A DNA stretch of 64,000 bases from an uncultured delta proteobacterium (lineage in GTDB: Bacteria; Desulfobacterota; Deferrimicrobia; Deferrimicrobiales; Deferrimicrobiaceae), in contig CAWEPX010000033.1 in NCBI GenBank assembly GCA_963811025.1, forward strand, positions 216,414 through 280,413, given 5' to 3'. The position numbers and the translations under genes were made by a program. Position 1 is the first letter of the stretch. Every line of letters begins with the position of its first letter. The notes below the pieces were generated by a model. The model saw nothing but the letters and a program-made list of their open reading frames with translations, was not told where the DNA came from and ran no database searches. Shown here in pieces: positions 18,922 to 41,404 of the stretch.

Positions 18922-18957
18922 TTGACACCATGCATTGAACCAGATAAATATAGTCCG
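18922..18957 (+). promoter_or_regulatory. sigma70 promoter with overlapping candidate Rrf2 operator; rrf2 may be leaderless
   Basis: TTGACA(18922)-N17-TAAATA; imperfect dyad CAGATAAATATAGTCCG 18941-18957; ATG at 18960 without SD. Confidence 0.4.
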
Positions 18958-18959
18958 AA

Positions 18960-20791: not shown

Positions 20792-20804
20792 CCAGGGGGA
20801 ACCG

Positions 20805-21779: not shown

Positions 21780-21961
21780 GTACCTCCGCCTGGGCCTATT
21801 TCGCTTTCACCGTTCTGCTCGTTGCCGTGTTCGCCGGGATCATCGCCCACTACTACTCCCGGAACCGGCGCGATACCGTGGAAGCACCCAAGTACCGGAT
21901 GCTCACCGAGGAAGGGGAGTCGTCCGATGCCCCTGAAAAGGACCGGAGGGAACGACGATGA
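21776..21961 (+). CDS. ccoQ: cbb3 small subunit
   Basis: MSTSAWAYFAFT.. single TM, VEAPKYRML; ATGA overlaps on both sides. Confidence 0.75.
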   Translation: MSTSAWAYFAFTVLLVAVFAGIIAHYYSRNRRDTVEAPKYRMLTEEGESSDAPEKDRRERR

Positions 21962-22434: not shown

Positions 22435-22451
22435 GAAAGGCGCGGGGGGCG

Positions 22452-25022: not shown

Positions 25023-25034
25023 TGGAGGGGGAAG

Positions 25035-27457
25035 ATGCCTGCCTGTGATCACTGTCTTCTGGAGATCGCTCCCGGAGACGCCATGGTCGAGGATGTCGGG
25101 GGGAAAGAGGCCGTATTCTGCTGCCCCGGCTGCAGGAATATCCATGCCCTGCTCCGCAGCGAAGGGCTGGAAGGATTCTATGCGCGGCGGCGGGGATGGA
25201 CTCCCGGGCCGTTCTCCGTTCCCCCCGTCGACCCGGAAATCTTCGCGGCGAACGCCCGGCAGTCCGGGCCCGGTGGCGACCTCGAGATGGACATCGCGAT
25301 CTCCGGGATCCGGTGCGCATCCTGCGTCTGGGTCATCGAGAGATACCTCGCGAAAAAACCGGGGGTCCTGTCCGCTCGTGTCCATTACGCCACCCATCGC
25401 GGAACGGTCCGCTGGGATCCGGCGCGGACCGACGCAGGGACGATCGCCGGCTGGATCGCGGATCTCGGATACGCTCCCTTCCCCGGGGAAACCACGGAGA
25501 TGGAGGAATCCCGGGCGAGGGAGAAGAAAGACCTCCTGCTTCGCCTGGGGACCGCCGCCTTCCTCTCCACGCAGATCATGATGATCACGGCCGGTCTCTA
25601 CGCGGGATACTTCCAGGGGATCGAGCCGTCCACCAGGACGCTGTTCCACGTGGTCGCCCTTTTCCTTGCCACCCCCGTGCTCTTCTACTCGGGGTATCCG
25701 TTCCTTGCGAACACCCTGGCCGCAATCCGGCGCCGGGCGCCGGGGATGGACACTCTCGTATTCCTGGGATCCTTCTCCGCCTATGCCTACAGCGTCGCGA
25801 TGATCTTCACGGGGGGGAGGTCTATTTCGACACAACGGCGATGATCATCACCCTGATCCTCCTGGGAAGGTACCTCGAGGCCTCCGCGAAAGGCAGGGCT
25901 TCGGAAACGATCGCGAGGCTCTTCCGGCTTGCTCCCGTTCGGGCAAGAAGGATCCCGCCGGGAGAAGGTGCGGCGCCGTCGGGGCAGGTCGTCCCCGTCT
26001 CCGCGATCCGGGCCGGAGACATCGTCGAGGTCATTCCCGGGGAGCGCGTTCCGGCCGACGGCGTCGTTTCCGAAGGCGAGTCCGAAGTCGATGAATCGAT
26101 GCTTTCCGGGGAGGCCCGTCCCGTCGACAAGGGCCCGGGGAGCCGGGTCTTCACCGGTACGGTGAACGGCAACGGCCGCCTTCGGATCGAGGTGACGGGG
26201 ACGGGCAGGGACACCGCGCTCTCGCGGATCATCCGGGCCGTCGAAGAGGCGCAGGCGAGGAAGTCCCCGGTGCAGGGGATTGCGGACCGGGTCGTAGGCG
26301 TATTCGTCCCGGCAATCCTTCTTGTCTCCCTGATCGCGCTCGGCGGGCGCATCCTCGCGGGGAGTCCCGCCGTGCCCGCCTTTCTCGCCTCGATCTCCGT
26401 TCTGGTGGTCGCGTGCCCCTGTGCCCTGGGTCTTGCCACTCCGCTTGCCGCCTTCCTGGGTTCGACGGAAGCGCAATCGCTCGGCATCCTGGTCAAGGGC
26501 GCCGACGTTCTCGAGAAGGGGAGCAAGGTGGACACCGTGTTTCTCGACAAGACGGGCACGCTGACGCAAGGGAGCCCTCGCCTCACGGACGTCGTCGGCT
26601 TCTCCCTGCCGCGCCGCGAAGTCCTGGAAATCGCGGCATCCCTGGAAGCGTCTTCGGAACACGCGATGGCGAACGCGATCCGGCGGGAGGTTCCGAGGAA
26701 CGAATGGAGAGACATCACGGGATTCCGCGCCTACCCCGGAATGGGAGTGGAGGGAACCGCGGCGGGGAAGCGGTATCTTCTCGGGCGAAGGAAATTTCAC
26801 GTGTCCCGGGATGTGACCGCGGCCGAGGAGCAGCGGGAGATCGCACGGTCACTGGCCAGGGAGGGAAAGACGGTCGCCTGGCTCTCGGAAGGCAGGTCGG
26901 TATCGGGCCTTCTGGCCGCCGAAGACACGCTTCGACCCGAATCGCCCGAATGCGTCCGGCGGCTCACGGAGAAGGGGTACACCGTCTGGATGGTAACGGG
27001 GGACGGCGAGGCGGTGTCCGCGAGAATCGCCGGGGAGGCGGGGATCGTGCGGGTCCTCTCCCCGTTGACTCCCCCGGAAAAGGCGGAGGCCGTGCGAAAG
27101 GCGCGATCCGAAGGATCCGTCCTGCTCATGGTCGGCGACGGGATCAATGACGCGCCGGCGCTCATTGAGGCCGACGTCGGGCTGGCGATGGGCAGGGGGA
27201 CCGACATCGCTCTCGAAAGCGCGGACGCCGTCCTCATGAACGACGACCTGCTGCTCGTACCGCGCTTCCTCGCGATCTCGCGAAACACCATGCGCATCAT
27301 CCGGCAGAACCTGTTCTGGGCGTTTTCCTACAATGCGGTCGCGATTCCCCTGGCGGTGGCGGGCAAGCTGCATCCCATCGTTTCCGCCGGGCTCATGGCG
27401 ATCAGTTCCCTGGTGGTGGTGGGAAACTCCCTGCGGCTGCGAAGGGGGAACTCCTGA
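25035..27457 (+). CDS. ccoI: Cu-transporting P1B ATPase, frameshift in G-run near 25815
   Basis: CDHC/CCPGC, CASC, CPCALG, DKTGTLT, GDGINDAP across ORFs 25035-25844 and ..27457. Confidence 0.9.
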
Positions 27458-27598
27458 ATGTGGACGACCATCCTCCTCCTGTTCCTGTCGATCGTCCTGG
27501 GGCTGGGGGCGTGGCTTCTGTTCGTCTGGGCGGTCAAAAGTGACCAGTTCGACGACCCGGAAGGCGTGAAGCACAGGATATTGGACGACGACGAGTAG
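27458..27598 (+). CDS. ccoS: cbb3 maturation protein (46 aa, not in ORF track)
   Basis: Hand translation MWTTILLLFLSIVLGLGAWLLFVWAVKSDQFDDPEGVKHRILDDDE*. Confidence 0.9.
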   Translation: MWTTILLLFLSIVLGLGAWLLFVWAVKSDQFDDPEGVKHRILDDDE

Positions 27599-27602
27599 GC
27601 CA

Positions 27603-27628
27603 AGGCCGGTCCTTCGGGGTTCCGGCCT
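27603..27628 (+). terminator. Hairpin ending cco operon
   Basis: AGGCCGG..CCTTCGGG..CCGGCCT immediately after ccoS stop. Confidence 0.4.
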
Positions 27629-27649
27629 CAATCCGTATCTCCTTTCAAG

Positions 27650-27817
27650 TGTAAGATTTCTTTATAGTTCATAATTCCCTTTTTATCTTGAGTGGTTGGG
27701 GAATAACTGTAAGGTTTGCTTACAGTTGTAGCGTCCGGCAAAGCATTGGCGGCCGAGATATTTTCTGATTAAAAATCATTATGTTACAGGATAAAAGGGG
27801 GGCGGCATGATGTTTGC
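27650..27817 (+). promoter_or_regulatory. sigma54 promoter with two upstream activator sites and IHF-like site
   Basis: CGGCATGATGTTTGC (GG 27804-5, GC 27816-7); TGTAAG-N5-CTTACA 27708-27724 and TGTAAG-N5-TTTATA 27650-27666; AATCATTATGTTA ~27774-27786. Confidence 0.7.
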
Positions 27818-27887
27818 CCTATAAAGGAGGCGTGGGCGACAAAGAGGGTAACAGGCAACAACCGGACTTCGGGTGCGGGAGGTCGCC

Positions 27888-28892
27888 ATGAAAGAGAATC
27901 CGAGAGTGCTGGTAGTGGACGACGAGGCATCGATCCGTCGCAATCTCGCGGTCGGCATGGCCCAGCGAGGATACGAGGTCGACGCCTGCGAATTGGGATT
28001 GTCCGCGCTGGAGAAGATCGAGGCGGCGAGGCGGTCCGGGGTTCCCCACAACTACGTGGTCCTCGATATCCGGCTGCCGGACATCGACGGGCTTCATCTC
28101 CTGAAGATGATCAAAGACGTGTATCCGGACCTGCCCGTGGTGGTGATCTCCGGCTACGGCGACGAGCAGACCGGGGAGCGGGTGAAGGAACGCTGCGGCA
28201 GCGCCTACCTTGACAAGCCGTTCGAGATCGAGGCGCTGGAAGCCGAGATCCTGAGGATCGGACCGTCGGAGGAGGAGAAGTCCGTCCCACGGCCGGAAGG
28301 CAGAATCGAGGAGTTGCGCAGCCAGAGCGCGTACGTCTTCCTCCGTGGCAGGCCGGACGCCGATCTGTCCGGGTGCTTCAACGCACTCTACTTCGCCGAA
28401 GGGGTCTTTTACTGCGACGCCGTGACGGGCGACTGGGATATCGTTCTTCTCGTCCAGGCGCCGGACCAGCGGGGAATCCGGGAATGGGTCGAACGGACCG
28501 TCAAGCCTCTCCCGGAGATCGAGGAGTACGAGATCCACCATTCCGGGCGCCCGTTGCTGGGGAAGGACATCGAGTCGTTCCTCCGGCATTACGAGCTTAT
28601 GCAGGCGGCCGAGGGCCTTGACGAAGAGGCGGGCGACAGGCGAAAAAGACAGCTCCTCTCGGCCTATGTTCTGCTGGAGATCGACAGGTTTTGCGTGCCC
28701 TCCCTGTACGCCACGTACTACTTCGACGAGGACGTGGTCTATTGCGACATGACCGACGACTGCGCGATGGCCATCCTCCTCGTGCAGGGCCGTACGTGCG
28801 ACGCGATCCGGCAGGCCGTCTCCCGGCTCCGGTCCAGGCCGGGAGTGCTTCGGGCCAGAACCTTGAACATCGTAAAATTCCAGGGCGTTTAG
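27888..28892 (+). CDS. Response regulator: receiver plus two tandem Lrp/AsnC-like ligand-binding domains, no HTH
   Basis: VLVVDDE, LDIRLP, KPF; repeat SAYV.L..YF.E.V.YCD..LLVQ twice. Confidence 0.7.
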   Translation: MKENPRVLVVDDEASIRRNLAVGMAQRGYEVDACELGLSALEKIEAARRSGVPHNYVVLDIRLPDIDGLHLLKMIKDVYPDLPVVVISGYGDEQTGERVKERCGSAYLDKPFEIEALEAEILRIGPSEEEKSVPRPEGRIEELRSQSAYVFLRGRPDADLSGCFNALYFAEGVFYCDAVTGDWDIVLLVQAPDQRGIREWVERTVKPLPEIEEYEIHHSGRPLLGKDIESFLRHYELMQAAEGLDEEAGDRRKRQLLSAYVLLEIDRFCVPSLYATYYFDEDVVYCDMTDDCAMAILLVQGRTCDAIRQAVSRLRSRPGVLRARTLNIVKFQGV

Positions 28893-28907
28893 CGTGGTGG
28901 GGAGACG

Positions 28908-29412
28908 ATGGCAACGGAGGAGGAACGCGTAAAGGGCGTCGTGATGCCGGCGTTCGGCCGGATGCTGTGGCGCCACGGCGGCGAGCCGGGCATGCTGATC
29001 CCGCTGCTCCAGGCGGCCCAGGATTCCTACGGCTACATCCCGCCGCTGGCGATCGAGCAGATCGCCATGGCGACCGGCATTCCGGCCAGCGAGATCTACG
29101 GGGTCATCACATTTTACAGGCAGTTTCGCCTGCAGCCGCTGGGCCGGTACGTGATCCGCATCTGCAAGGGGACCGCCTGCCACGTCCAGGGGGCGGAAAT
29201 GATCGGCAGGACCCTGGAGGAGGAGCTCGGAATCCACGAGGGAGAGACCAGCGAGGACGGACTGTTCACGTTCCTGTACGGTGGCCTGCCTCGGATGCTG
29301 CAGTCTCGCTCCCGTGGTGATGATCGGCGAACAGGCATACGGCAGACTTACTCCCCAGACGCTCCGAAGCGTTCTCCGAAGGTTCCGACGGAAAGCGGTC
29401 GGGGGCGCATGA
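28908..29412 (+). CDS. NuoE/HydC/StnA-like [2Fe-2S] subunit, +1 frameshift near 29277
   Basis: LIPLLQAAQ..GYIP, ICKGTACH; VACLGCCSLAPV in shifted frame ending TGA 29410-29412. Confidence 0.85.
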
Positions 29413-29443
29413 CGTTTCTTCCGGCTTCTTCAAGGAGGACCCG

Positions 29444-31193
29444 ATGCAGGCGGTGATGGTCGGACTGGGATCGTGCGGCATTGCCACGGGGGGGCTGGCC
29501 GTACAGCGGCGGTTCCAGGAGTTGCTGGGACCCGAAGACGAGGGGGTGACGCTCAAGGAGACCGGGTGCATCGGGCTGTGTCATCGCGAGGTGCTGGTCG
29601 AGATCGTCGAAGATGGCAGGCGGAGGACTCTCTACGGCGAGGTGACACCCGACCGGGTGGACCGCATCGTCGCGGACCATCTGCGCGGGGGGAGGGCGAT
29701 CACGGAATGGGTCGTGGACCGGGAAGCTATGCTCGCCGGGCAGAAGCGGATCGTGCTGCGCAACTGCGGCGAAATCGACCCATCCAGCATCGAGGAGTAT
29801 CGCGCCCGGGGAGGCTACCTGGCTCTTCGTCGGGCCGTCACCGAGATGACTCCCGGGGAAGTCATCGCAATGGTCGCCGATTCCGGCCTGCGCGGAAGAG
29901 GCGGGGCCGGTTTTCCCGCCGGGACCAAGTGGAGACTTGCCCGGGCTGCGCAGGCGACGCGCAAGATCGTCATCTGCAACGCCGATGAAGGGGATCCTGG
30001 CGCCTTCATGGATCGCAGCGTGCTCGAGGGAGATCCGCACTCCGTGCTGGAAGGGATGGCGATCGCGGGTTATGCCATCGGCGCCAAGGAGGGCATCGTC
30101 TACGTCCGGGCGGAGTACCCCCTCGCGATCCGCCGGCTGCTCGAGGCCATAGCCGGCGCCCGGGAAAGGGGACTCCTGGGCCCCAACCTGTTCGACAGCG
30201 GTTTTTCCTTTTCCATCCGCCTGAAGGAAGGGGCCGGTGCGTTCGTATGCGGGGAGGAGACCGCGCTGATCGCTTCCATCGAGGGCAGACGGGGAATGCC
30301 GCGCGTGCGCCCGCCGTTTCCCACGGAAGCCGGCCTGTGGGGGCATCCCACCTGCATCAACAACGTGGAGACGCTTGCCAACGTGCCCTGGATCCTTTCC
30401 CACGGGGCCCGGGCCTTCCGATCCTGCGGGACCGCCGACTCCAAGGGGACCAAGGTGTTCGCCCTGGCGGGAAAAGTGAAACGGGGAGGCCTCGTGGAGG
30501 TTCCCATGGGCACCACCATCGACGAGATCGTCTACGGGATCGGCGGCGGCACCGTCTCGGGGGGTCCGTACAAGGCGGTCCAGATGGGGGGTCCGTCGGG
30601 CGGATGCATCCCCGCCTCCCTGGGGAGCACGCCCGTCGACTACGAACAGATCACCGCCACCGGCGCGATCATGGGCTCGGGCGGAATGGTGGTCATGGAC
30701 GATTCCACCTGCATGGTGGACGTCGCCCGGTTTTTCCTGCACTTCACCCAGAACGAATCGTGCGGGAAGTGCACCTTCTGCCGGATCGGCACGAAGCGGA
30801 TGCTCGAGATCCTGGAGAGGATCTGCGCGGGGGGCGGGAATCCGGAAGACGTGCACACGCTCGCGGAGATGGGCGAGCAGATCCGGACGAGTTCCCTGTG
30901 CGGACTCGGCCAGAGCGCTCCCAACCCGGTGCTGACGACCCTGCGGTATTTCCAGGACGAGTATGAAGGGCACATACGCGACGGGAAATGCGCGGCAAGG
31001 GTCTGCCTGGCCCTGGTGGAATTTTCGATCGATCCGGACAAGTGCACGGGCTGCGGTCTGTGCGTCAAGGCCTGCGACGCCGGGGCGATCAGCGGCGCAG
31101 AGCAAGGAGGTCCACCGGATCGACGGGAGCCGCTGCGTACGATGCGGGAACTGCCTTACGGTCTGCCGTTCCGAAGCGGTCCGGAAAGGATAG
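29444..31193 (+). CDS. NuoF/HydB/StnB-like NADH/FMN subunit with C-terminal 2[4Fe-4S], frameshift near 31100
   Basis: GRGGAGFP, CNADEGDPGAFMDR, FVCGEET, ESCGKCTFC, CTGCGLC; second CVRCGNCLTVC in frame ending 31193; RBS AGGAGG. Confidence 0.88.
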
Positions 31194-31198
31194 CGAAA

Positions 31199-34100
31199 AT
31201 GCAACGGAAAACGGACGAGGACCGGTCGTACCTGCCGGTGGAACTCACGATCAACGGGCGGGCGGTCGTGGCGCGCCCCGGACAGACCATCCTCGAACTG
31301 GTCCGGGAGCAGCATCTGGACACGATCCCGACACTTTGCCACGAGCCCGGACTTCCGCCGTTCGGCTCCTGCTTCCTTTGCGTGATCGAGGTCAAGGATG
31401 CGCGCGGGCTCCTGCCTTCCTGCACGACCCTGGTCCGGGACGGGATGGAGGTCATAACCCGCAGCGACCGGATCACGCGCGCCCGGAAGACCGCGCTCGC
31501 GCTGCTCCTTTCCGATCACTATGCCGACTGTGCGTGTCCCGGACAGCTGGCCTGTCCGGCCGGCGTCGACGTCCAGGGATATCTGGGCCTGGCGAGGCTC
31601 GGCCACTACCGGGAGGCCCTGCGCCTGATCCGGGAGCGAAACCCCCTGCCCGTCGTCTGCGGAAGGGTGTGCGTGCGAAAGTGCGAGGCGGCGTGCCGCC
31701 GCAGCCTGGTGGACGAGTCCGTCGGGATCAACCACGTGAAGCGTTTCGTGTCCGGTCACGCGAGTGTACACCCGGAACGGCTGCCCCCCACGGGGAAGCG
31801 TGCCGCGGTCGTGGGGGGCGGTCCGGCGGGCCTGACCTGCGCGTACTACCTGTCCCTGCGGGGTCATTCGGTCACGATCTACGAGGCGATGCCTCGTCTG
31901 GGGGGGATGCTCCGGTACGGGATTCCCGCGTTCCGTCTTCCCCGGGAGGAGCTGGACGCGGACATCGACGTCATCCTTTCGCTCGGCGTAAAAATCGTCT
32001 GCAACCACAAGCTCGGCAGGGAGTTCACGCTGCTGGGGCTGCGGGAGGAGGGATTCCACGCGATCTTCCTGGCTCCGGGCGCGCCCCTTGGCAAGAAACT
32101 GGGCATACCGGGCGAGGAAGCCTTGGGGGTGGAATCGGCCCTGGATTTCCTGAGGGACACCGAACTGTACAGGCCCCGGGATCTGTACGGAAGAGTTGTG
32201 GTGGTGGGGGGAGGCAACTCCGCCGTGGACGCCGCACGGACCGCCATCCGCTGCGGCGCGGAAGAGGTCATACTCCTGTATCGCCGGTCCCGCAAGGAGA
32301 TGCCGGCCTTCCACGAGGAAGTGGAAGCTGCGGAGCAGGAAGGAGTGCGTCTCACGACGCTCGTCGCGCCGGTGGAGGTGATCCGGGAGGGGGTGACCGG
32401 CAGGTTGATGGGCATCCGGTGCGTCCGCATGGAGCTCGGCGAGCCCGATCAAAGCGGGCGGCGCAGGCCCCTGCCCGTCGAGGGATCCGAGTTCGATGTC
32501 CCGTGCTCCTTCGTCTTCCCCGCGCTCGGCCAGGATACCGATCCGGATCTCTTCTCCCGGGAACCGGAAGGCGGCCGTCCCGCCGTCGCCCCCCCGGGCA
32601 CCATCGAAACGGACGCGGCAACGATGGCGTGCCGCCTTCCCGGCGTGTTCGCCGGCGGCGACGCGGTAAGCGGCCCGGCCGCGGTGATCGACGCCGTTGC
32701 CCAGGGGCGGCTGGCCGCCGAGGCGATCGACGGGTACCTGCGGACCGGGGAGGTGAACCGGTCCGACCCCGCTTTCGTCTGCCGGCGCGACGATTTCGGC
32801 CCCGTCCCGGATACGCTGTACGAGGATGTGAAGCGGGTTCCGCGCCGAGCGATGCCGCAGCGCCCGGCCGGGGAACGGAGGACCGACTTCCGGGAGGTGG
32901 AGCAGGGCTATTCCGAGGAGGCAATGAGGGAGGAGGCCGTCCGGTGCATGGAGTGCGGCTGCAAGGCCCTGCACACGTGCGACCTCCGCAGGTATGCGGT
33001 CGAATACGGCGTGGATGTCGGGGGCGTGGCCGGCCAGGTCCGGCGTCACAAGGTGGACGACAGCCATCCGCTGATCGCCTACGACGCCAACAAGTGCATC
33101 CTCTGCGGCCGGTGCGTCCGCGTCTGCGAGGATGTCCTCGACCAGCCGGTACTCGGATTCGTGGGAAGGGGATTCGACACGACGGTAAAGCCTGCCATGG
33201 GGCGGCCTCTCGCCGAGAGCGCGTGCATCGCCTGCGGCGCGTGCGTCGAGTCGTGTCCCACGGGGGCTCTCACGGCCAAGCTTCCCTACGGGCGGCAGGG
33301 GCCGTGGCGGACGACCCGAATTCCTTCGGCGTGCGGCTTCTGCTCCCTGGCGTGTCCGCTGGACCTGCACGTGGTGACGGACGGCCTGCTGTGGGCGGCT
33401 TCCCCCGTGGATGCCCTCGGAAGGAAGGGGGACCTGTGCGCCAAGGGCAGGTTCGGAATCGGCCTGCTCCATTCCGGAGACCGGATCCGCGCTCCCCTGG
33501 TCCGGAAAAACGGCGGGCTGGAGCAGACCCGTTGGGAGGAGGCGCTGCGGGAAGCGGGGCGACTCCTCTCGGACTGCCGCCGCCGGTACGGCGCCGGATC
33601 GATCGCCGTCCTGGCCGCCGACCGGATGACATGGGAAGAGAGCTACCTCGTCGGGCGATTCGCCCGGGAGGGCCTGGGCACCGATCACGTCGGCAGCTTC
33701 GGCACGTTACGCCGCGGCGGCATCCGGCGAGACCTGGACGATTTTCTCGGCCGGACCGCTTCCACTTGCCTTGTCGAAGACCTGGACGACGCGGACGTGA
33801 TCGTCGTGGTCGGGGCCGATCCCGGCACGTCCCATCCGGTGCTCGGCATGAGGCTGCGGCGGGTGGCCCGGAAGGGCGCCGCCATCGTGGTGGTGCATTC
33901 GAGCGAGATCGACCTGGTCCGCCCGTCGACCCTTTGGCTTAATCCCCGAAGGGGAACGTCGGGAATCCTGCTGGCGGACGTCCTGCGGCGGATCCTTGCG
34001 AGCGACGGGGTCGACGAGCGGTGGACGGGCGCCGGTGGCGACGAACGGGAGGCGCTCCGGGATCTGCTGGAAGGCGCCGCCCCTGGCGGAGCGCAAGAAG

Positions 34101-34864
34101 CGTGCGGTGTCGACTCCGGGAAGTCGAGGGCGCTTGCGCAAGCCGTAACCGGCGGGAAAAAGGTGGTCGTCGTATACGACCTGGAGGAAACGGCCGAACG
34201 ATCGGAGGGCGATCTGGCTCTCCTGGCCCGTATCCAGGCGGCGACCGGGCACCTGGTTCCGCCCGCAGGCGGTCTCCTGCTCCTCGGGAGCGGCTGCGAC
34301 ACGGAAGCGGCCAGGCCGGCGACCCTGGGGGAGACGAACCTTCTGGATGCCTTGTCTGCGAAGCGGATCCGGGGAGCCGTGGTCCTGCTCGAGGACCCGC
34401 TTTCCGACCCGGAAGGAGAGGCCCTCCTGGGCGGCCTGGAGACGCTTATCGTTGCGGACCATTCCTGGACGCGCACCGCGAAGGCCGCGCAGGTCGTGCT
34501 CCCGGCATCGACCCTCGCCGAAACGGAAGGGACCGTAGTGCGCTTCGACGGGACGCTTCGCCCGGTGGAGAAGGCGTGCGCGCCCCCCGGCGGCCGCACG
34601 ACAGCCGGGATGATCCGCGATCTCGCGGAGGAGTTCGGGTGCAAGATCCCGCCGGCCCGCCCCGACGCGATCCGCGCGGACCTTTTCCGACCGCGGGGGA
34701 GTTCACCCGACGACGCGGGAAGGAACCTCGTCCCGCGAACGCTCGACATCCGGAAGATCCGCCTGTCCGGAAAAGCCATGTTGCCGGGCAGGCGTTCCTA
34801 TGCCACGATGAACGAGGCGGTGCGCGGCAGGCTGGCGGGCCGGGAAATACGGGGGGCGTTCTAG
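31199..34864 (+). CDS. StnC-like large subunit: [2Fe-2S] + GltD/NfnB-like FAD/NADPH domain + ferredoxins + Fdh/NuoG-like domain without Mo ligand
   Basis: IPTLCH..GSCFLC, CGRVC..CEAACRR, GGGPAG, GGGNSAVD, YRR, CILCGRC, CIACGAC, CGFCSLAC..LCAKG; no Cys/Sec at TDHVGSFG. Confidence 0.8.
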   Translation: MQRKTDEDRSYLPVELTINGRAVVARPGQTILELVREQHLDTIPTLCHEPGLPPFGSCFLCVIEVKDARGLLPSCTTLVRDGMEVITRSDRITRARKTALALLLSDHYADCACPGQLACPAGVDVQGYLGLARLGHYREALRLIRERNPLPVVCGRVCVRKCEAACRRSLVDESVGINHVKRFVSGHASVHPERLPPTGKRAAVVGGGPAGLTCAYYLSLRGHSVTIYEAMPRLGGMLRYGIPAFRLPREELDADIDVILSLGVKIVCNHKLGREFTLLGLREEGFHAIFLAPGAPLGKKLGIPGEEALGVESALDFLRDTELYRPRDLYGRVVVVGGGNSAVDAARTAIRCGAEEVILLYRRSRKEMPAFHEEVEAAEQEGVRLTTLVAPVEVIREGVTGRLMGIRCVRMELGEPDQSGRRRPLPVEGSEFDVPCSFVFPALGQDTDPDLFSREPEGGRPAVAPPGTIETDAATMACRLPGVFAGGDAVSGPAAVIDAVAQGRLAAEAIDGYLRTGEVNRSDPAFVCRRDDFGPVPDTLYEDVKRVPRRAMPQRPAGERRTDFREVEQGYSEEAMREEAVRCMECGCKALHTCDLRRYAVEYGVDVGGVAGQVRRHKVDDSHPLIAYDANKCILCGRCVRVCEDVLDQPVLGFVGRGFDTTVKPAMGRPLAESACIACGACVESCPTGALTAKLPYGRQGPWRTTRIPSACGFCSLACPLDLHVVTDGLLWAASPVDALGRKGDLCAKGRFGIGLLHSGDRIRAPLVRKNGGLEQTRWEEALREAGRLLSDCRRRYGAGSIAVLAADRMTWEESYLVGRFAREGLGTDHVGSFGTLRRGGIRRDLDDFLGRTASTCLVEDLDDADVIVVVGADPGTSHPVLGMRLRRVARKGAAIVVVHSSEIDLVRPSTLWLNPRRGTSGILLADVLRRILASDGVDERWTGAGGDEREALRDLLEGAAPGGAQEACGVDSGKSRALAQAVTGGKKVVVVYDLEETAERSEGDLALLARIQAATGHLVPPAGGLLLLGSGCDTEAARPATLGETNLLDALSAKRIRGAVVLLEDPLSDPEGEALLGGLETLIVADHSWTRTAKAAQVVLPASTLAETEGTVVRFDGTLRPVEKACAPPGGRTTAGMIRDLAEEFGCKIPPARPDAIRADLFRPRGSSPDDAGRNLVPRTLDIRKIRLSGKAMLPGRRSYATMNEAVRGRLAGREIRGAF

Positions 34865-34887
34865 CTCTAGGGAAAGGAGCTGTCCGG

Positions 34888-36354
34888 TTGCCGGATCGTT
34901 CCCTGCGGGAAGAAGAGCTTCTCGTTCGCGTCGGGTGGATCGTCAAGGTCCGGTGGCTGTTCCTGGCGGTCCTGGCCGTCACCATCGTGACCGGTCGCTA
35001 CGCTTTCGGGATCCGGTTCCCCGTCGGCAGGGTCCTCCTCGTATGGGCCGTCATCCTCCTGTACAACCTTGGCTTTGAGCTGTATTACCGGTTCCGGAAA
35101 AGCGAGTCGGCCCCGGATCTCACCGTCAGCCGGATCGAAACGTATCTGCAGATCGGAATGGATCTTCTGGCCCTGACGTTCCTCATCCATTTTACCGGGG
35201 GGGCCGAGAACCCGTTCATCTCCTTCTACCTGTTTCATGCGATCCTGGCCAGCATGCTTCTCCCGCGAGCGGAGGCATGGCTCCTGGGTCTTGTCTCCTA
35301 CTGCATGTTTCTCTCGGTCGTCGCCCTGGAATACCTCGAGATTGTCCCCCACTATCAGCTGGAAGGACTGTTCCTCCACTCCCGTCACGGGAACCTCCTG
35401 TTCCTTTCGGTGGTGAGCCTGGGCCTGTTGATCACGCTGGTCATCACCATCTACCTGTCCTGTACGATCGTGGGCAGCCTGAGGCTCCGCGAGAAGAATC
35501 TGGTACTGACGCGGAACATGCTGGAGAAGAAGTCGGGAGAGCTGACGGAGGCGAACGCGAAGCTGGTGGAACGGCAGAAACAGCTCGTCCAGGCCGAGAA
35601 GCTTGCCTCGATGGGGCAACTGGTGTCTGGCATCGCGCACGAGATCAACAATCCCGTCCAGTTCATCCAGGGGAACATGCAGATTCTCCGGGAGGCGATC
35701 CGGGACATCCTGCCCGTCCTGGACGCGGAGGCGAAGGAGGACCGCGGCATGAAGATCGCACGGCTCCCGTACCCGTTCTTCCGGGAGCAGGTCCAGGTCC
35801 TTCTCAAGGACATGGCGGACGGCGCGGGGCGCATCGGTAACATCGTCCGGGACCTGAAGACGTTCGCCCGGCGGGACGAGGGCCGTCTCGACGAGAAGGT
35901 GGATGTGAACCGGGTGGTCGAAGCCGCGACCCGGCTGGTGCACAACAAGATCAAGCGCTTCCGGCTGGAGCAAAGCCTGGCGGAGGGGCTGCCCGCGCTC
36001 AAGGGGAGCCTGGTCCAGCTGGAGCAGGTGGTGGTCAATACGCTCATCAACGCGGCCGAGTCGTTGGAAGATCGTCCCGACGCCTGCATCCGGATCGCCA
36101 CCCGGCTGGAGAACGCCGGCCGGCAGGTGCGATTGTCCATCGCCGACAACGGCCCGGGGATGACCGACGAAGTCAAGGACCGGCTGTTCGATCCGTTCTT
36201 CACGACCAAGCAGCGCATCGGCGGCACCGGGCTTGGCATGTCGATCACCTACGGAATCATCGAGGAGCACGGAGGGTCGATCGAAGTCGACACCCGACTC
36301 GGAGGGGGGACAACGTTCCATTACCTCCTGCCGGTGGCCCGGAGCGCGTCGTGA
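34888..36354 (+). CDS. Integral-membrane sensor histidine kinase (RegB/PilS-like N-terminus, NtrB-like core)
   Basis: About 6 TM, TGGAENPF, AHEINNP, DNGPG, FFTTK..GTGLG; TTG start after AAGGAG. Confidence 0.88.
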   Translation: MPDRSLREEELLVRVGWIVKVRWLFLAVLAVTIVTGRYAFGIRFPVGRVLLVWAVILLYNLGFELYYRFRKSESAPDLTVSRIETYLQIGMDLLALTFLIHFTGGAENPFISFYLFHAILASMLLPRAEAWLLGLVSYCMFLSVVALEYLEIVPHYQLEGLFLHSRHGNLLFLSVVSLGLLITLVITIYLSCTIVGSLRLREKNLVLTRNMLEKKSGELTEANAKLVERQKQLVQAEKLASMGQLVSGIAHEINNPVQFIQGNMQILREAIRDILPVLDAEAKEDRGMKIARLPYPFFREQVQVLLKDMADGAGRIGNIVRDLKTFARRDEGRLDEKVDVNRVVEAATRLVHNKIKRFRLEQSLAEGLPALKGSLVQLEQVVVNTLINAAESLEDRPDACIRIATRLENAGRQVRLSIADNGPGMTDEVKDRLFDPFFTTKQRIGGTGLGMSITYGIIEEHGGSIEVDTRLGGGTTFHYLLPVARSAS

Positions 36355-37793
36355 ACCGCATCCTGATCATCGACGACGACAAGGCCGTGCTGAACTATTT
36401 CCTGGTGCTGCTCCTCCAGGCGGAGCGCTTCGAGGTCGAGGCGCTCGCCGACAGCACGAAAGCGTTCGACACGATCGATTCGGGGAAATTCGATCTTTTG
36501 CTCCTGGACATGGACATGCCCGGAGTGTCGGGAAAAGAGGTGCTGCAGTACGTGCGACGGGACCATCCCGAGATGGAAGTGGTGATCATCACCGGGGTGG
36601 AAGACGTGGAGCTTGCCGTCGAGTCGATGAAGATGGGGGCCTACGACTATCTCTGCAAGCCGGTGGACGACAGACGTCTGCTTACCACGCTGGACCGCGC
36701 GCTGGAACGGTCTCGCCTGCGGGGGGAGATCGACAAGCTGCGTGACCGGATCAGCCTGGAGGGACTCCGGCACAAGGAGGAGTTCCGTGGGATCCTGACG
36801 CAGGACGGGAAGTTCCTGCGAACGCTCCGGAAGGTCGAGCAGATCGCGGAGAGCGACAACAACGTGCTGATCTGGGGGGAAAGCGGCACCGGGAAGGAGC
36901 TGGTGGCGAGGGCCATCCACCGGATCAGCAAGCGCCGTGACAAGTCGTTCGTCGCCGTGAACGCCGGGACGTTCGCCTCCGAACTGTTCGCCTCGGAATT
37001 CTTCGGCCACGACCGGGGATCGTTCACCGGAGCGGCCAGGGACAAGGCAGGGTTGTTCGAAGAGGCGGACGGCGGAATCCTGTTTCTCGATGAGATCGGT
37101 GCGCTCGAGCTGCCGGTCCAGTCGAAACTCCTGAGGGTCCTGCAGAGCGGCGAATACTTCCGGCTGGGCTCCACCCGGGAACGGGGGTCGGACGTCCGGG
37201 TCATCGCCGCGACGAACAAGAACCTGGAAGCGGAAATCGAGCACGGCCGATTCCGCAGGGACCTGTATTATCGCCTCAACATCAGCTCGATCTACCTGTC
37301 GCCGCTGCGGGAGCGGAAGGGGGACGCGGAGCTGCTCGCCCACCATTTCCTCGAGAAGCACAGCAAGCTGAACGACAAGTCGATCGCCGGGATATCCGAC
37401 GACGTGTTGAGCCTGCTGGAGGCGTACGACTATCCGGGCAATGTCCGGGAGCTGGAAAACATCATCGCCAGCGCGGTGGTGCTGGAGAACGGCCGCACGC
37501 TGACCCGGCGCAGCCTTCCGCCGTATCTTGTCAAGGCGGTCACCCGTGCGGGGCTGTCCGTTCCCCGGGAGGTTCGGAAGACCCTGGCAGAGCTCGAGGC
37601 GGAACACGTCCGGATTGTCCTGGAACACACGGGCGGGAACCGGACGGCGGCGGCGGCCATCCTGGGCATCTCGCGGGTCGGTCTTCTCGCGAAGATGAGG
37701 AAGTACGGCATCGACGTGGAACCGCCGGGAAGAGGGGGTGGCCGGCGGCCGGCCCGGGACGATCCCGCCGGGGACGAACCATCGCAAAGCTAG
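36351..37793 (+). CDS. sigma54-dependent NtrC-family response regulator
   Basis: REC, GESGTGKE, GSFTGA, LFLDEI, YPGNVRELEN, Fis-type HTH; GTGA overlap with kinase. Confidence 0.93.
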   Translation: MNRILIIDDDKAVLNYFLVLLLQAERFEVEALADSTKAFDTIDSGKFDLLLLDMDMPGVSGKEVLQYVRRDHPEMEVVIITGVEDVELAVESMKMGAYDYLCKPVDDRRLLTTLDRALERSRLRGEIDKLRDRISLEGLRHKEEFRGILTQDGKFLRTLRKVEQIAESDNNVLIWGESGTGKELVARAIHRISKRRDKSFVAVNAGTFASELFASEFFGHDRGSFTGAARDKAGLFEEADGGILFLDEIGALELPVQSKLLRVLQSGEYFRLGSTRERGSDVRVIAATNKNLEAEIEHGRFRRDLYYRLNISSIYLSPLRERKGDAELLAHHFLEKHSKLNDKSIAGISDDVLSLLEAYDYPGNVRELENIIASAVVLENGRTLTRRSLPPYLVKAVTRAGLSVPREVRKTLAELEAEHVRIVLEHTGGNRTAAAAILGISRVGLLAKMRKYGIDVEPPGRGGGRRPARDDPAGDEPSQS

Positions 37794-37971
37794 AACAGGA
37801 ACCGGCCCATCGACTCAGCCGTTCCAGCGGTACCCGACCTCAGGGATGGAGATATCGCTGTCGCGGTTATGATCGGTCATGAACCGGAAAAGCATCCCCT
37901 TTCAAATAAATGAGAGTTGAGGGGGATCTCCCTTGCTGTGGAGGCGGGACGTCCCCGATGGAGCAGGTAGA

Positions 37972-38123
37972 GTTGCATGCTCGCAACCATTGATTGAATA
38001 GATAGTCGCGATGATGCGACTGTCTTGGTCTGAGGCGAACTCCCTGTCGTAAAGTAACATATTGGTTCTATTCATTGTATAGATCCGCCATCCCTCGTTT
38101 CCCAACATGGCACGTCTGATGCA
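37972..38123 (+). promoter_or_regulatory. sigma54 promoter of TTT operon with two dyad upstream sites
   Basis: TGGCACGTCTGATGCA 38108-38123; GTTGC-N6-GCAAC 37972-37987 and GTCGC-N6-GCGAC 38005-38020. Confidence 0.65.
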
Positions 38124-38247
38124 CAAATATATGATGCCGACTAGGGGAGTGGTCCTTCACAGATTGTCCTTGCAGTCCCGAGAGGGGAACCCGGGACCTG
38201 AACCGTCAACACGTTTCGACCCTTTTTCAGCGGAAGGGAGGGGAACC

Positions 38248-39246
38248 ATGAGTTTTCTACACGGGAGAAAGTCCTTGGTGTGGATGTTTGTCATCGTCCT
38301 CTGTCTCGTTCCCATGATGCTTGGGTCCGCCGGGGCATGGGAACCGACCAAACCGATCACGGTGGTAATCCCCTATTCCCGCGGGGGAGCGGACATCATC
38401 GGCCGGTTCATCCAGAGCGTCGTGGGAAAATACGGGTTCTGCAAGCAACCCCTTGTCGTCGTCAACAAGGCAGGCGGGTCCGGAACGGTAGGGATGAAAT
38501 ATCTCCTGGATCAGAGGGGAGACCCTCACTTCTTCATGGTCAGCCTGTCAAGCATCGTGACGACTCCTCTTCACACCAACGTCGGTTTTACCTGGAGAGA
38601 CCTGACCCCGTTTTGCCGGTTGGCCCTGGACAGGCATGCCCTCTGCATATCCACGAAAAAATACCCCGACATGTATACGCTCGATCAATTCGTCAAACTT
38701 GCCAAGGAAGCGGAGAAACGAGGTGACCTGCTGCAGTGCGGCGGGACCGGAGTCAAGCAGGAAGACCAGATCGTCATGATCATGCTGGAGAAAGCTACCG
38801 GGATCCACCTGAAATACATACCCATCAAGAGCGGGGGGGAGGTGGCCAAAAACCTGGTCGGGGGGCACATCGACCTTTCGGTGAACAACCCCTCCGAGTT
38901 CCTGGGCTACACCTTGTCCGGGGACATGAGGCAGATCGTCGCCTTTGACAAAAAAAGGGTCATCGGCTACATCAACGTTCCGACCATGCCGGAACTGGGA
39001 TACCCGGATGCCACCTACCAGATGTTGCGAGGGCTCTTCATGCCACCGGATATCAAACCCGAGCAGGTCGAATACATGACCGGCCTGATCAAAAAGGTGA
39101 TCGCAACCTGCGAATGGCAGACCTTCCTGAACAGGGTCATGCTCGACGGCTCCGAGCCTATCTTCGGAGAGGAATTCCGGAAGTGGATGGAAGAGTATGA
39201 CGCCCTGCACGTGAAGTACATGAAGGAGGGAGGCCTTATTCCATAG
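38248..39246 (+). CDS. tctC: Tripartite tricarboxylate transporter substrate-binding protein
   Basis: Signal peptide, WEPTKPITVVIP..GGAD, VNKAGGSG, GGHID. Confidence 0.85.
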   Translation: MSFLHGRKSLVWMFVIVLCLVPMMLGSAGAWEPTKPITVVIPYSRGGADIIGRFIQSVVGKYGFCKQPLVVVNKAGGSGTVGMKYLLDQRGDPHFFMVSLSSIVTTPLHTNVGFTWRDLTPFCRLALDRHALCISTKKYPDMYTLDQFVKLAKEAEKRGDLLQCGGTGVKQEDQIVMIMLEKATGIHLKYIPIKSGGEVAKNLVGGHIDLSVNNPSEFLGYTLSGDMRQIVAFDKKRVIGYINVPTMPELGYPDATYQMLRGLFMPPDIKPEQVEYMTGLIKKVIATCEWQTFLNRVMLDGSEPIFGEEFRKWMEEYDALHVKYMKEGGLIP

Positions 39247-39327
39247 ATTATTGGGTTCCCCCGGCTCCCGATCACGGGAGCCGGGGGAACTGCCATGCAG
39301 GAATGCTTACACGCAAGGACGGTTCCC

Positions 39328-39828
39328 ATGAAGAAAGCGGAAATCTACATGGCTACTTTCTGGGCAGGGCTGTCCATTGCCATCATGATGGAGATCCAGG
39401 TAATTCCCGGCACGAAGCAGCCTATCGGCTGGGCAAGGGGCGTGGGTCCCCAGTCCGGTTGGTTCCCGTTCTATCTCGCCTTGATCATGTTGCTCTGCAG
39501 CCTGGTCGTCCTGATCCCGAAGCTTGTTCAAGCGGCAAGGGAAGGCCTGGCGGACAAGCCCTTTGTCAGCATGGATGGTCTGAAGGCTGTTCTCCGGGCA
39601 TTCGGCCCCATGCTCGCCTACGTTTGCACCCTGCCGTGGCTCGGGTTTTACCTCGGGTCCACGCTCTATCTCGTCTATGCACTCCGGTTTGTGGGAAAGC
39701 ATTCCTGGACGCTGTCGCTGGCGACCGGAATCCTTTTCAGTGCGGCGATCTTCACAATCTTTGAAAAGTATCTCCTGCTTACGCTGGCCAAGGGAGTTTT
39801 GGAACCGATTTTAAATAAGCTCCTTTAG
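39328..39828 (+). CDS. tctB: TTT small membrane subunit
   Basis: GW..GPQSGWFPF, 4-5 TM, LGFY; start may be 39295. Confidence 0.8.
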   Translation: MKKAEIYMATFWAGLSIAIMMEIQVIPGTKQPIGWARGVGPQSGWFPFYLALIMLLCSLVVLIPKLVQAAREGLADKPFVSMDGLKAVLRAFGPMLAYVCTLPWLGFYLGSTLYLVYALRFVGKHSWTLSLATGILFSAAIFTIFEKYLLLTLAKGVLEPILNKLL

Positions 39829-39844
39829 AAAAGGAGTCGATGTC

Positions 39845-41356
39845 ATGGCAGACATCCTGTCAGGTCTTGCGACCGGGATCGCTGTTACGTTCACTCCTTT
39901 CAATATGATGATTGGCTTTCTGGGGGTCGTTCTGGGAATGCTCTTCGGAATCCTTCCCGGACTGGGGCCCCTCAACGGCGTGGCGATCCTCCTTCCCGTG
40001 ACCTTCGTTCTGCCCCCCGAGTCCTCCATGATCTTCATCGCCGCCATTTATTATGCCGGAACCGCCGGAGGCGCCATTACCTCCATCAGTCTCAACATCC
40101 CGGGAACCCCCATGGCGGCGGCCACCTGTCTGGACGGGCACCCCATGGCCAAGAAAGGCGAGGGGGCCCTCGCCATTTTTACGGCCGCGACGGCCTCCTT
40201 GATCGGAGGGCTGCTGGCCTGCGTCGGATTCGTCTTCCTGGCTCCGCCCCTTGCCCGATACGCCCTTTTCTTCGGTCCGCCGGAGTTCTTTTCCCTGATG
40301 ATCGTCGCCTATGCCTGCTTCGCGGGACTGGGCGGAAAATCGGTGGTCAAGACCGTCATCATGACCGTCTTCGGCCTGATTTTAAGTTGCGTGGGAATGG
40401 ATTGCATGACGGGGAATGTCCGATTAACCTTCGGTTACATGGGATTTTACAATTCCATCACGTTTCTCACGGCTGTCGTGGGAATGTTCGGAATAGGCGA
40501 GGTTCTAACCACCGTGGAAAAAGGGATAAGAGGACAGGTCATCCATCCGAATGTAACGTGGAAGGATTACACCCTGTCCTTGAAATTGATCTGGAAGCAT
40601 AAAATCCTGGTATTGACCGATACCGTTCTGGGATTTCTGGTGGGGGTTCTCCCCGCGGCGGGTGCCACGCCAGCTTCTTTCATGGCCTACGGGTTCTCCA
40701 AATCGATGTCAAAACGACCCAAGGAATGGGGCACGGGCATACCGGAAGGCGTCATGGCCACGGAGTCGTCCAATCACGCTGCCAGCACCGGCGCTTTTGT
40801 TCCCATGGTGACACTGGGAATTCCCGGCTCGCCGCTGGCAGCCATCGTGCTGGGCGGGATGCTGATCTGGGGGCTTGTTCCGGGTCCCCGCCTGTTCATC
40901 GAACAACCGAAATTCGTATGGGGGCTTATCGTCTGCGGATTTGTCGTGAACATCCTGACCTACGTATTCGAGATTTCCCTGGTTCCCTTTCTCATGAAGG
41001 TCCTGAAAACCCCGTTTACCATCATGACCCCGATTATCGCCATTTTTTGCCTGATCACCGGCTACGTCCAGAATTTCGGCATGGTCGAGGTGTGGGAGGT
41101 TCTGGTGTTCGGCGTGCTGGGATATTTCTGCAAGAAGCTGGATTATCCCGTCGCCCCGCTCATCCTGGCCCTGGTTCTCGGCCCCATGACAGAGGAGTCT
41201 TTGCGTCAAAGTCTCCTCCAGTCCGGTGGGTCCCTGATGATCTTCGTTACGCATCCGATCTCTTGCGCTCTTCTGCTGATCTCGGCTGTTCTCTATGCGG
41301 TGCCGATCACGAAGAGCGTGCTGGATGCGAGGAGAAAAAAGCAGGAAGCCGCATAG
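39845..41356 (+). CDS. tctA: TTT large membrane subunit
   Basis: GILPGLG, NIPGTP, LDGHPMAK, TLGIPG, LVLGP. Confidence 0.9.
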   Translation: MADILSGLATGIAVTFTPFNMMIGFLGVVLGMLFGILPGLGPLNGVAILLPVTFVLPPESSMIFIAAIYYAGTAGGAITSISLNIPGTPMAAATCLDGHPMAKKGEGALAIFTAATASLIGGLLACVGFVFLAPPLARYALFFGPPEFFSLMIVAYACFAGLGGKSVVKTVIMTVFGLILSCVGMDCMTGNVRLTFGYMGFYNSITFLTAVVGMFGIGEVLTTVEKGIRGQVIHPNVTWKDYTLSLKLIWKHKILVLTDTVLGFLVGVLPAAGATPASFMAYGFSKSMSKRPKEWGTGIPEGVMATESSNHAASTGAFVPMVTLGIPGSPLAAIVLGGMLIWGLVPGPRLFIEQPKFVWGLIVCGFVVNILTYVFEISLVPFLMKVLKTPFTIMTPIIAIFCLITGYVQNFGMVEVWEVLVFGVLGYFCKKLDYPVAPLILALVLGPMTEESLRQSLLQSGGSLMIFVTHPISCALLLISAVLYAVPITKSVLDARRKKQEAA

Positions 41357-41404
41357 ATTTTTAGAGATTTCGGATTACCATTGGTATTGAGGAGGAGAGT
41401 GTTC

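Follow-up and report, generated by a model that had tools for sequence, protein, structure and literature searches.

A candidate redox-controlled sigma-54 operon joining a Stn/Nfn-type transhydrogenase to a RegB-like kinase and a receiver-RAM protein

Introduction

Work on Bfu-type bifurcating enzymes has treated them as constitutive components of the metabolism of strict anaerobes. How might such an enzyme be governed in a bacterium that also respires oxygen? The question is raised by a 64,000-nucleotide stretch of DNA (the window; contig CAWEPX010000033.1 of assembly GCA_963811025.1, positions 216,414 to 280,413 of the forward strand), whose own coordinates are used throughout. Here the genes of a Stn-type transhydrogenase stand in a facultative aerobe and appear to be wired to a sigma-54 promoter, to a membrane kinase with a RegB-like sensor and to a rare protein joining a receiver to two RAM domains (receiver-RAM). 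The host is a Candidatus Deferrimicrobium-like bacterium of the candidate phylum MBNT15, and the sole named full-length match to the receiver-RAM protein (L017) comes from a Candidatus Deferrimicrobium metagenome-assembled genome. The genus is reported to be facultatively anaerobic, to have oxidases of the aa3, cbb3 and bd types together with pyruvate-, 2-oxoglutarate- and indolepyruvate:ferredoxin oxidoreductases, and is predicted to reduce iron (Begmatov et al., 2022); a term search of that paper's text gave neither Nfn nor transhydrogenase.

On balance, the block is probably a sigma-54 operon of a bifurcating transhydrogenase with dedicated signalling genes, under membrane redox control. 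The membrane kinase, through a sensor homologous to that of RegB/PrrB, would read a membrane redox signal, most likely the menaquinone pool, and in its active state would phosphorylate an NtrC-type activator. The activator would bind two TGTAA-N7-TTACA palindromes, which precede the -12 element by about 100 and 160 bp, and would open the sigma-54 promoter. Transcription would cover the whole operon, kinase and activator included, giving positive autoregulation, and synthesis of the enzyme, which is oxygen-sensitive and rich in iron-sulfur clusters, would be limited to times when the respiratory chain is reduced. The kinase would also phosphorylate the receiver-RAM protein (a receiver with a tandem RAM pseudo-dimer and no DNA-binding domain), which would act post-transcriptionally, with the enzyme or the signalling flow as its target and perhaps with a small ligand of the RAM pair as its gate. 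Domain content, enzyme-family membership, sensor-domain homology, promoter and palindrome conservation and gene linkage are established by the sequence comparisons; we infer the signal, both phosphotransfers, the binding of the activator to the palindromes and the target of the receiver.

The operon is real and conserved; its enzyme family is known, and the regulatory set around it is undescribed. Like the initial annotation of this DNA, which knew of no description of the combination, a search of main texts in the Creative Commons part of PubMed Central (PMC) and in bioRxiv found no paper linking Stn/Nfn-Bfu genes with sigma-54, a two-component system or a receiver-RAM protein. The main texts of the Stn and Bfu papers, in the parts available, describe no regulation of Bfu-type enzymes and mention no regulators of this kind. 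If the proposed circuit is correct, it would explain how an enzyme that balances ferredoxin and NAD(P)H and is sensitive to oxygen is confined to reducing conditions in an oxygen-tolerant organism, it would extend RegB-type sensing past the Proteobacteria and past ubiquinone, and it would give an undescribed response-regulator architecture a defined, testable function.

Architecture of the operon

The interval between ccoS and the TctCBA transporter genes is filled by a compact plus-strand block (27650-37793) of two palindromes, a sigma-54-type promoter and six genes on the same strand:

27650-27666, palindrome 1, TGTAAGATTTCTTTATA, with one mismatch to TGTAA-N7-TTACA; putative activator site
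27708-27724, palindrome 2, TGTAAGGTTTGCTTACA; putative activator site, preceding the -12 element by about 100 bp
27803-27817, plus strand, sigma-54-type promoter CGGCAT-GATGT-TTGC, with GG at 27804-27805 and GC at 27816-27817, 12 nt apart
27888-28892, plus strand, receiver-RAM gene; receiver and two RAM (Lrp/AsnC ligand-binding type) domains, 334 aa (Pfam PF00072, PF01037)
28908-29412, plus strand, stnA (nfnC); NuoE-like [2Fe-2S] subunit (Pfam PF01257), frame broken in the assembly at 29276
29444-31193, plus strand, stnB (nfnB); NuoF-like FMN/NAD subunit with an N-terminal [2Fe-2S] domain and two C-terminal [4Fe-4S] clusters (Pfam)
31199-34864, plus strand, stnC (nfnA); [2Fe-2S], GltD-like FAD/NADPH and NuoG/FdhF-like domains, 1221 aa (Pfam)
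34888-36354, plus strand, membrane histidine kinase; RegB-like multi-helix sensor, coiled coil, HisKA (H251) and HATPase_c, 488 aa
35197-35217, GGAENPF motif in the membrane domain of the kinase
36351-37793, plus strand, NtrC-type sigma-54 activator; REC, AAA+ and HTH_8, 480 aa (Pfam, NCBIfam, motifs)

All the elements listed by the initial annotation (activator sites, promoter, six genes and their spacing from ccoS) were found. The 289-bp intergenic stretch before the receiver-RAM gene holds both palindromes and the -24/-12 element. The kinase starts at a TTG placed 8 nt past a GGAG, and the start of the activator overlaps the kinase stop. An upstream GTG start for the receiver-RAM gene, at 27873, was ruled out by a 1-bp gap there in the related genome G016. 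The 28 nt before its ATG (27860-27887, ACTTCGGGTGCGGGAGGTCGCC...) are almost invariant across seven genomes, which exceeds the need of a ribosome-binding site. Scans of the region for sigma-70 promoters and terminators gave nothing over shuffled expectation, and no Rfam family reached its gathering score within 27400-38200.

The activator carries the motifs GESGTGKE (Walker A) and GSFTGA. Its best NCBIfam match is the AtoC model (403 bits, cut-off 714), and no equivalog model reaches its cut-off. Judged by domains and motifs, it is an NtrC-type sigma-54 enhancer-binding response regulator. The arrangement is that of NtrB/NtrC, AtoS/AtoC and ZraS/ZraR, in which a REC-AAA+-HTH_8 activator likewise goes with paired upstream palindromes about 100-170 bp from a -24/-12 promoter. 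Differently from those systems, the sensor is RegB-like and the apparent target is a bifurcating transhydrogenase operon that contains its own regulators.

Gene linkage across genomes and metagenomes

Is this a lasting unit or a chance neighbourhood? Among 41 related genomes, the full-length receiver-RAM gene is present in 5 of the 13 that belong to the genus (the window's included), in 2 of 12 other genera of the family (at 72% and 35% identity), in none of seven sister-family genomes and in one of nine other families, there as two paralogues of 33-35% identity; a wider phylum sample has the RAM pair in 2 of 151 genomes. Since its distribution among relatives is patchy, the block is taken to be accessory. 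Where it occurs within these relatives the order is stable: G005 and G016 carry the same six genes in the order and on the strand of the window, G021 has the same order with a PAS-type kinase instead, and G011 follows it up to the end of its contig inside stnC.

Scanning metagenomes with an alignment of the RAM part yielded 76 loci, in which genes downstream of receiver-RAM on the same strand were counted, a locus being eligible for a gene according to the amount of downstream DNA on its contig:

stnA, 57 of 57 eligible loci
stnB, 41 of 41
stnC, 33 of 33
kinase, 18 of 21
full-length activator, 10 of 19

These loci are not independent, as clustering of the 63 full-length receivers leaves 38 groups at 90% identity and 8 at 70%; the GC content of their contigs runs from 0.44 to 0.71. 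Receiver-RAM thus accompanies stnABC in every eligible metagenome locus, and the conserved core is receiver-RAM with stnABC, usually plus the kinase. The adjacent activator is a lineage-specific addition. The six-gene unit that had been proposed does recur in order and strand, in G005, in G016 and on many metagenome contigs, and the co-occurrence expected of it holds for the three enzyme genes and largely for the kinase; for the activator it does so in about half of the eligible loci. A profile search with the full-length receiver-RAM alignment was uninformative: 79 of 80 loci were unrelated response regulators because the search patterns came from the receiver domain, and only L017 was a true match.

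Promoter and activator sites

TGTAA-N7-TTACA occurs exactly twice in the 2.9-Mb assembly, with 0.5 copies expected from composition. When one mismatch is allowed there are eight copies genome-wide, and the only pair within 120 bp is formed by the sites at 27650 and 27708. As the count of exact copies exceeds expectation and the pairing is unique, the pair goes beyond chance. Both palindromes and the -24/-12 element are kept in all seven related upstream regions aligned; the TGTAA and 3' arm of palindrome 1 and the positions CGG..A.G....TTG of the promoter are each retained in 7/7. The genome also encodes rpoN (440 bits).

In all 19 distant loci displayed, those without an adjacent activator included, elements of the type TGGCAC-N5-xxGC, read by eye, stand upstream of the receiver-RAM gene, and the operon seems to be sigma-54-dependent throughout its loci. 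Palindrome-like sites with up to two mismatches were seen upstream in 10 of 11 loci with the activator and in none of eight without it, a contrast that agrees with the proposed pairing of activator and sites and is weakened by its use of related sequences and a loose match. The TGTAA-N7-TTACA sites therefore seem to belong with an activator of the window type, and the transcriptional arm of the circuit is, at the level of sequence, well supported.

Other results count against the proposed circuit. The full activator is found in only 10 of the 19 eligible loci; the remaining nine comprise four with a stand-alone receiver after the kinase, two with nothing relevant after the kinase, two with neither kinase nor activator within 10 kb (L158, L165) and one with a convergent PAS kinase and activator. 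Because sigma-54-type promoters are present in all 19 loci displayed and the activator follows in only 10 of the 19 eligible ones, the adjacent activator cannot be the universal regulator. The -12 GC is GA in two of the seven aligned upstream regions (G005 and L017). Finally, the receiver-RAM paralogues of G032 (33-35% identity) lie away from stn genes, beside unrelated genes.

In L135, L138, L139 and L172 a stand-alone receiver of about 125 aa replaces the activator after the kinase (about 18000-18480 in L135). This lineage keeps an upstream TGGCAC-N5-TCGCT, and L135, L138 and L172 add an inverted repeat of the GATTTC...GAAATC type further up. Retention of the sigma-54-type element implies a different, unlinked activator there.

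The sensor kinase

What does the kinase sense? Its membrane region was compared with four bona fide RegB/ActS proteins, which score 520-571 bits to the curated RegB/PrrB/ActS model NF033792. The comparison (hhalign) gave 97.1% probability and an E-value of 6.5e-11 over 132 columns, and on this evidence the membrane domain is homologous to that of RegB. Among the 32 kinase matches in the genome, this is the only one aligning across the whole RegB model (kinase residues 1-449, model positions 16-403). In RegB, R31 and Q38 of helix 1 are reported as fully conserved, and a GGXXNPF motif containing N110 and F112 lies in the loop between helices 3 and 4, where the change F112Y lowers ubiquinone binding (Wu and Bauer, 2010). 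All 12 membrane-type kinases aligned retain an equivalent of R31, and the motif reads GGxxNPF in 18 of 20 kinase homologues and GGxxNPY in the other two.

The genome (96% completeness) contains a gene of the MqnA/D type, with no match to a Ubi hydroxylase and no UbiG above the cut-off. As it appears to be devoid of ubiquinone synthesis, menaquinone is the likely pool. Sensing of the quinone pool by this kinase is probable, as a part of the circuit proposed above.

A number of features speak against it. The score to NF033792 is 64-68 bits, far under the cut-off of 350. In the column of Q38 all 12 membrane-type kinases have L and none Q; in that of Cys265, the redox-active residue of RegB that lies between the H-box and the ATPase domain, 12 of 12 Stn-linked kinases have I, against C in 4 of 4 bona fide RegB/ActS proteins. 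The catalytic core is AtoS/NtrB-like, not RegB-like. Kinases of L105 and L109 naturally carry GGGENPY (residue 90 of the aligned part), the equivalent of RegB F112Y. Lastly, RegB binds ubiquinone, and since the quinone genes of this genome point elsewhere any quinone sensed must differ. The kinase is therefore best called RegB-like in sensor architecture, and by the curated NF033792 test it is not a member of that family. Of the quinone-sensing GGxxNPF kinase first proposed, the motif is borne out, and it lies in a RegB-homologous membrane domain.

It is possible that the membrane domain responds to another cue, such as membrane potential, a lipid or another hydrophobic ligand, GGxxNPF being a structural motif of the helix bundle and not a quinone site. 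The loss of Q38, one of the RegB membrane residues shown to matter (R31, Q38, N110, F112), and of Cys265 would fit this, as would the natural NPY variants and the likely use of menaquinone in place of ubiquinone. However, the homology of the sensor domain to RegB is significant, the motif occupies the same loop and is nearly invariant, and it is logical for a facultative aerobe to place an oxygen-sensitive, ferredoxin-linked enzyme under respiratory redox control. Such a cue is accordingly considered rather unlikely, and quinone sensing is preferred.

With RegB/RegA and its counterparts PrrB/PrrA, ActS/ActR and RoxS/RoxR, the window kinase shares a homologous membrane sensor, the GGxxNPF motif in the loop that follows helix 3 and a counterpart of R31. 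It differs in the absence of Q38 and Cys265, in its AtoS/NtrB-type core and in an added coiled coil. Its apparent partners are an NtrC-type activator and receiver-RAM in place of a RegA-type regulator, its quinone is probably menaquinone, and the system looks local to one operon rather than global.

The receiver-RAM protein

What is the role of a response regulator that has no DNA-binding domain? The AlphaFold2 model of the whole protein (mean predicted local distance difference test score, pLDDT, 85) has a receiver, a disordered linker and two beta-alpha-beta-beta-alpha-beta units. Foldseek with the whole model gave only receiver domains, so the RAM part was modelled separately (pLDDT 86), and its two units packed as a pseudo-dimer. 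One PF01037 match clears the cut-off, with 33.1 bits where 25 are required; the second RAM unit shows up in the model only. The best Foldseek matches of the RAM part are 4ch7 (template modelling score 0.65, normalised to the query), 2djw and 2zbc, its fold matches being the tandem units of the siroheme decarboxylase NirDL, stand-alone RAM modules and Lrp/AsnC proteins.

Neither Pfam nor the model gives a helix-turn-helix (HTH) or other DNA-binding domain, and all 63 full-length homologues retain D60 and K110. The predicted paired fold resembles that of Lrp/AsnC RAM domains, of the stand-alone RAM proteins TTHA0845, STS042 and FFRP-DM1 and of the NirDL tandem units. In contrast to Lrp/AsnC regulators, the protein has no HTH and its tandem RAM is fused to a receiver domain; it shares the RAM domain and is not a member of the Lrp/AsnC family.

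The family is small, with 287 representatives at E <=0.001 and 35 at <=1e-30 among 1.84 billion. Most members have about 320-345 aa, and some of about 190-220 aa consist of the RAM pair only. At E <=1e-5 the RAM pair was found in no longer protein (586-2000 aa), which is weak evidence. The papers on RAM domains and response regulators listed from the Creative Commons PMC and bioRxiv collection, judged from their listing and, for PMC4641369, also by a term search, yielded no description of a receiver-RAM protein. Receiver-RAM is a rare, undescribed response-regulator architecture.

One explanation, which we regard as possible and somewhat doubtful, is that receiver-RAM tunes transcription and not the enzyme. 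It would be a ligand-gated connector or phosphate sink, either drawing phosphoryl groups from the kinase in competition with the activator or binding the activator itself. An intact phospho-acceptor pocket (D60, K110) without a DNA-binding domain is consistent with such a modulator, RAM domains are, by the fold matches, the ligand-binding modules of Lrp/AsnC regulators, and the extra stand-alone receiver after the kinase in L135, L138, L139 and L172 is what branched phosphotransfer would lead one to expect. On the other side, receiver-RAM is linked more tightly to stnA (57/57) than to the kinase (18/21) or the activator (10/19), and it persists in L158 and L165, where kinase and activator are absent within 10 kb.

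Alternatively, receiver-RAM may be a regulatory subunit of Stn/NfnABC, gated by phosphorylation and a metabolite, so that a menaquinone sensor of the RegB type would switch the enzyme at the protein level as well as transcriptionally. It would make this the first bifurcating enzyme under two-component control, and the response regulator would have an output of a new class; we hold this reading to be unlikely. A predicted complex of the RAM pair with StnA and StnB reached a median score of 0.66, and a control with StnB replaced 0.52, so the score is not specific and speaks neither for nor against binding.

The two paralogues of G032 have other surroundings. One (L016 10492-14738) lies by a 2-oxoacid:ferredoxin oxidoreductase and an ACT-pair protein, the other (L014 2921-6768) near a pyridoxal phosphate-dependent enzyme (Pfam PALP). 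Other partners of the receiver-RAM family may be ferredoxin- or amino-acid-linked.

The Stn/Nfn-type enzyme

In a comparison with all PDB chains, the StnC-like protein matched NfnA of Caldicellulosiruptor saccharolyticus (9bov_A, 818 bits, residues 14-1149), StnC of Sporomusa ovata (8oh5_C, 701 bits) and an archaeal NfnA (9n5u_A, 605 bits). StnB was scored from an intact orthologue instead of the frameshifted copy of the window, and gave 804, 780 and 775 bits to 9bov_B, 8oh5_B and 9n5u_B. The identities of these entries are those given in the Stn/Nfn structure papers, in the text available from them. StnC has been described there as a [2Fe-2S] head followed by a GltD-like FAD/NADPH domain and an inactive FdhF-like NuoG domain, with K170 at cluster C7 reported as strictly conserved (Kumar, 2023). 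The domain order of the window protein (Pfam) equals that description; its K181 aligns with K170 of 9bov_A in the motif (L/V)KRF, and 8oh5_C shares the alignment offset.

The cluster ligands are likewise kept: C86, C91, C127 and C131 of StnA and eight C-terminal cysteines of StnB are invariant in 17 homologues. In the window assembly the C-terminal ligands of both subunits are out of frame through two insertions, judged below to be assembly errors. The three subunits thus show the layout of the family, in which the NuoF-like subunit has a thioredoxin-like domain at its N-terminus. By these comparisons the enzyme is a member of the Stn/NfnABC (Nfn-Bfu) family and, by homology, an electron-bifurcating transhydrogenase linking NADH, NADPH and ferredoxin; its predicted reaction is NADH + reduced ferredoxin + 2 NADP <-> NAD + oxidised ferredoxin + 2 NADPH. 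The Stn-like oxidoreductase of the initial annotation is borne out by the 818 and 804 bits to solved NfnA and NfnB; its statement that StnABC comes from strictly anaerobic acetogens proved too narrow, Stn clusters having been reported from Firmicutes, Proteobacteria, Synergistetes and Euryarchaeota (Kremp, 2020), a distribution since extended to Bacteroidetes (Schut, 2022).

The enzyme has in common with StnABC of Sporomusa ovata and NfnABC of C. saccharolyticus and Thermococcus sibiricus the three-subunit domain order, full-length scores of 700-818 bits and the lysine at C7. Their hosts are strict anaerobes, whereas that of the window is a facultative aerobe with three terminal oxidases, and here the genes belong to a sigma-54 operon, flanked by a receiver-RAM gene on one side and a two-component system on the other.

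Could the enzyme be mainly an NADPH-dependent reductase of another acceptor, such as soluble Fe(III), sulfur or polysulfide, or oxygen, along the lines of SfrAB of Geobacter or NsoABC of Thermococcus litoralis? StnC is homologous to SfrA/SfrB and to NsoC, Nso having first been described as a sulfur/oxygen oxidoreductase (Kremp, 2020), and the genus, as noted, is a predicted iron reducer. Yet the closest solved and assayed relatives across all subunits are the bifurcating NfnABC and Stn enzymes, the NuoE/NuoF bifurcating core is complete, C-terminal ferredoxin-type clusters included, and Nso itself is held probably to be a transhydrogenase (Kremp, 2020). SfrAB of Geobacter sulfurreducens and NsoABC likewise are described as using NADPH through GltD-like and NuoG-like modules. 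Unlike the window enzyme, SfrAB has no NuoE/NuoF core and carries the modules on separate proteins; in the window the core is present and the modules are fused as in StnC. A reductase role is thus quite unlikely, and bifurcating transhydrogenation is retained as the predicted activity.

The cbb3 neighbourhood

In Rhodobacter, coupling of PrrB to the cbb3 oxidase is known. Upstream of the block lies a complete cbb3 cluster:

upstream genes, in order, ccoN, ccoO-P, ccoG, ccoH, a DsbD-like gene, ccoI and ccoS
27458-27598, plus strand, ccoS (Pfam FixS)

The end of ccoS (27598) is followed after 52 bp by the first palindrome, and the initial annotation had taken this neighbourhood as a functional clue. 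Together, the full cluster (ccoN, ccoOP, ccoG, ccoH, ccoI, ccoS) and its closeness would suit a block that is functionally coupled to the cbb3 genes, for instance by sensing cbb3 electron flux as PrrB does. However, of the 50 loci whose contigs extend beyond 600 nt upstream, 3 have ccoS there, and each of these shares 95% identity or more with the window; ccoS was found in none of the 47 under 95%, with the reservation that a 46-aa query could miss divergent copies. The adjacency was not found in G005, G016 or G021, and in G005 homology to the window begins exactly at 27649. Being confined to near-identical strains, the cbb3 neighbourhood is, on this sequence comparison, incidental, and coupling is very unlikely.

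A 96%-identical contig, L098 (8901-8907), joins window position 18906 to 27222. It lacks ccoN through most of ccoI and retains the 3' end of ccoI, ccoS and the whole stn block, which also argues against coupling. The junction is either a natural cbb3 deletion or a chimeric contig.

Frameshifts in the assembly

Are the enzyme genes intact? The nuoE-, nuoF- and gltD-fdh-like genes of the initial annotation are present, and two 1-bp insertions in them had been overlooked. They show in the open reading frame (ORF) list and in a three-frame translation, and DNA alignment to two related genomes pins them to single positions. The first is at 29276, where it breaks stnA and gives the NuoE-like product a nonsense tail; the proper C-terminus (VACLGCCSLAP...) lies in the +1 frame. 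The second, near 31096, joins stnB in frame to stnC as a 1806-aa ORF (29444-34864), the proper NuoF C-terminus (...CVRCGNCLTVC...) again lying in the +1 frame, with its stop at 31191-31193. A true giant NuoF-StnC fusion was ruled out, as the insertion is private by reading frames, relatives and public runs. In addition, the alignment to the related genomes shows one G missing from the G run at 25811-25818 in ccoI.

None of the three indels is seen in the related genomes G011 and G005, and that at 29276 is also missing from L097. A 99.5%-identical metagenome contig is free of the ccoI and stnA changes and stops before the third site. In contigs from four public runs of four studies, both insertions are missing in 4/4 and the ccoI G is present in the 3/3 that cover the site. 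Because of their absence from relatives, from the 99.5%-identical contig and from the public runs, we conclude that the three frameshifts are assembly errors and that the genes are intact in nature. That operon and ccoI are decaying pseudogenes in this strain, as three 1-bp indels inside 5.3 kb, two of them outside homopolymers, might suggest, is highly improbable given these comparisons and frames that are otherwise all open, with no further decay visible.

In practice, neither the seeming NuoF-GltD-Fdh giant fusion nor the broken nuoE should be taken at face value, both being assembly errors. Over 12.4 kb aligned with the 99.5%-identical contig there are three indels in total, and further genes of this genome may therefore carry false frameshifts.

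Some variation was met elsewhere in the stn genes. In runs X2 and X3 a +1/-1 indel pair in stnB, at 29951 and 29958 (7 nt apart), restores the frame and alters two codons; it is strain variation. In L017 (13047-15087) the stnC region is about 1.6 kb shorter than that of the window and stnB is truncated on its 5' side, through either deletion or misassembly. Directly downstream of the block lies one further set of genes:

38107-41356, TctCBA transporter

The operon has a GC content of about 0.63-0.69, which falls to 0.54-0.57 across the TctCBA region (38000-42000).

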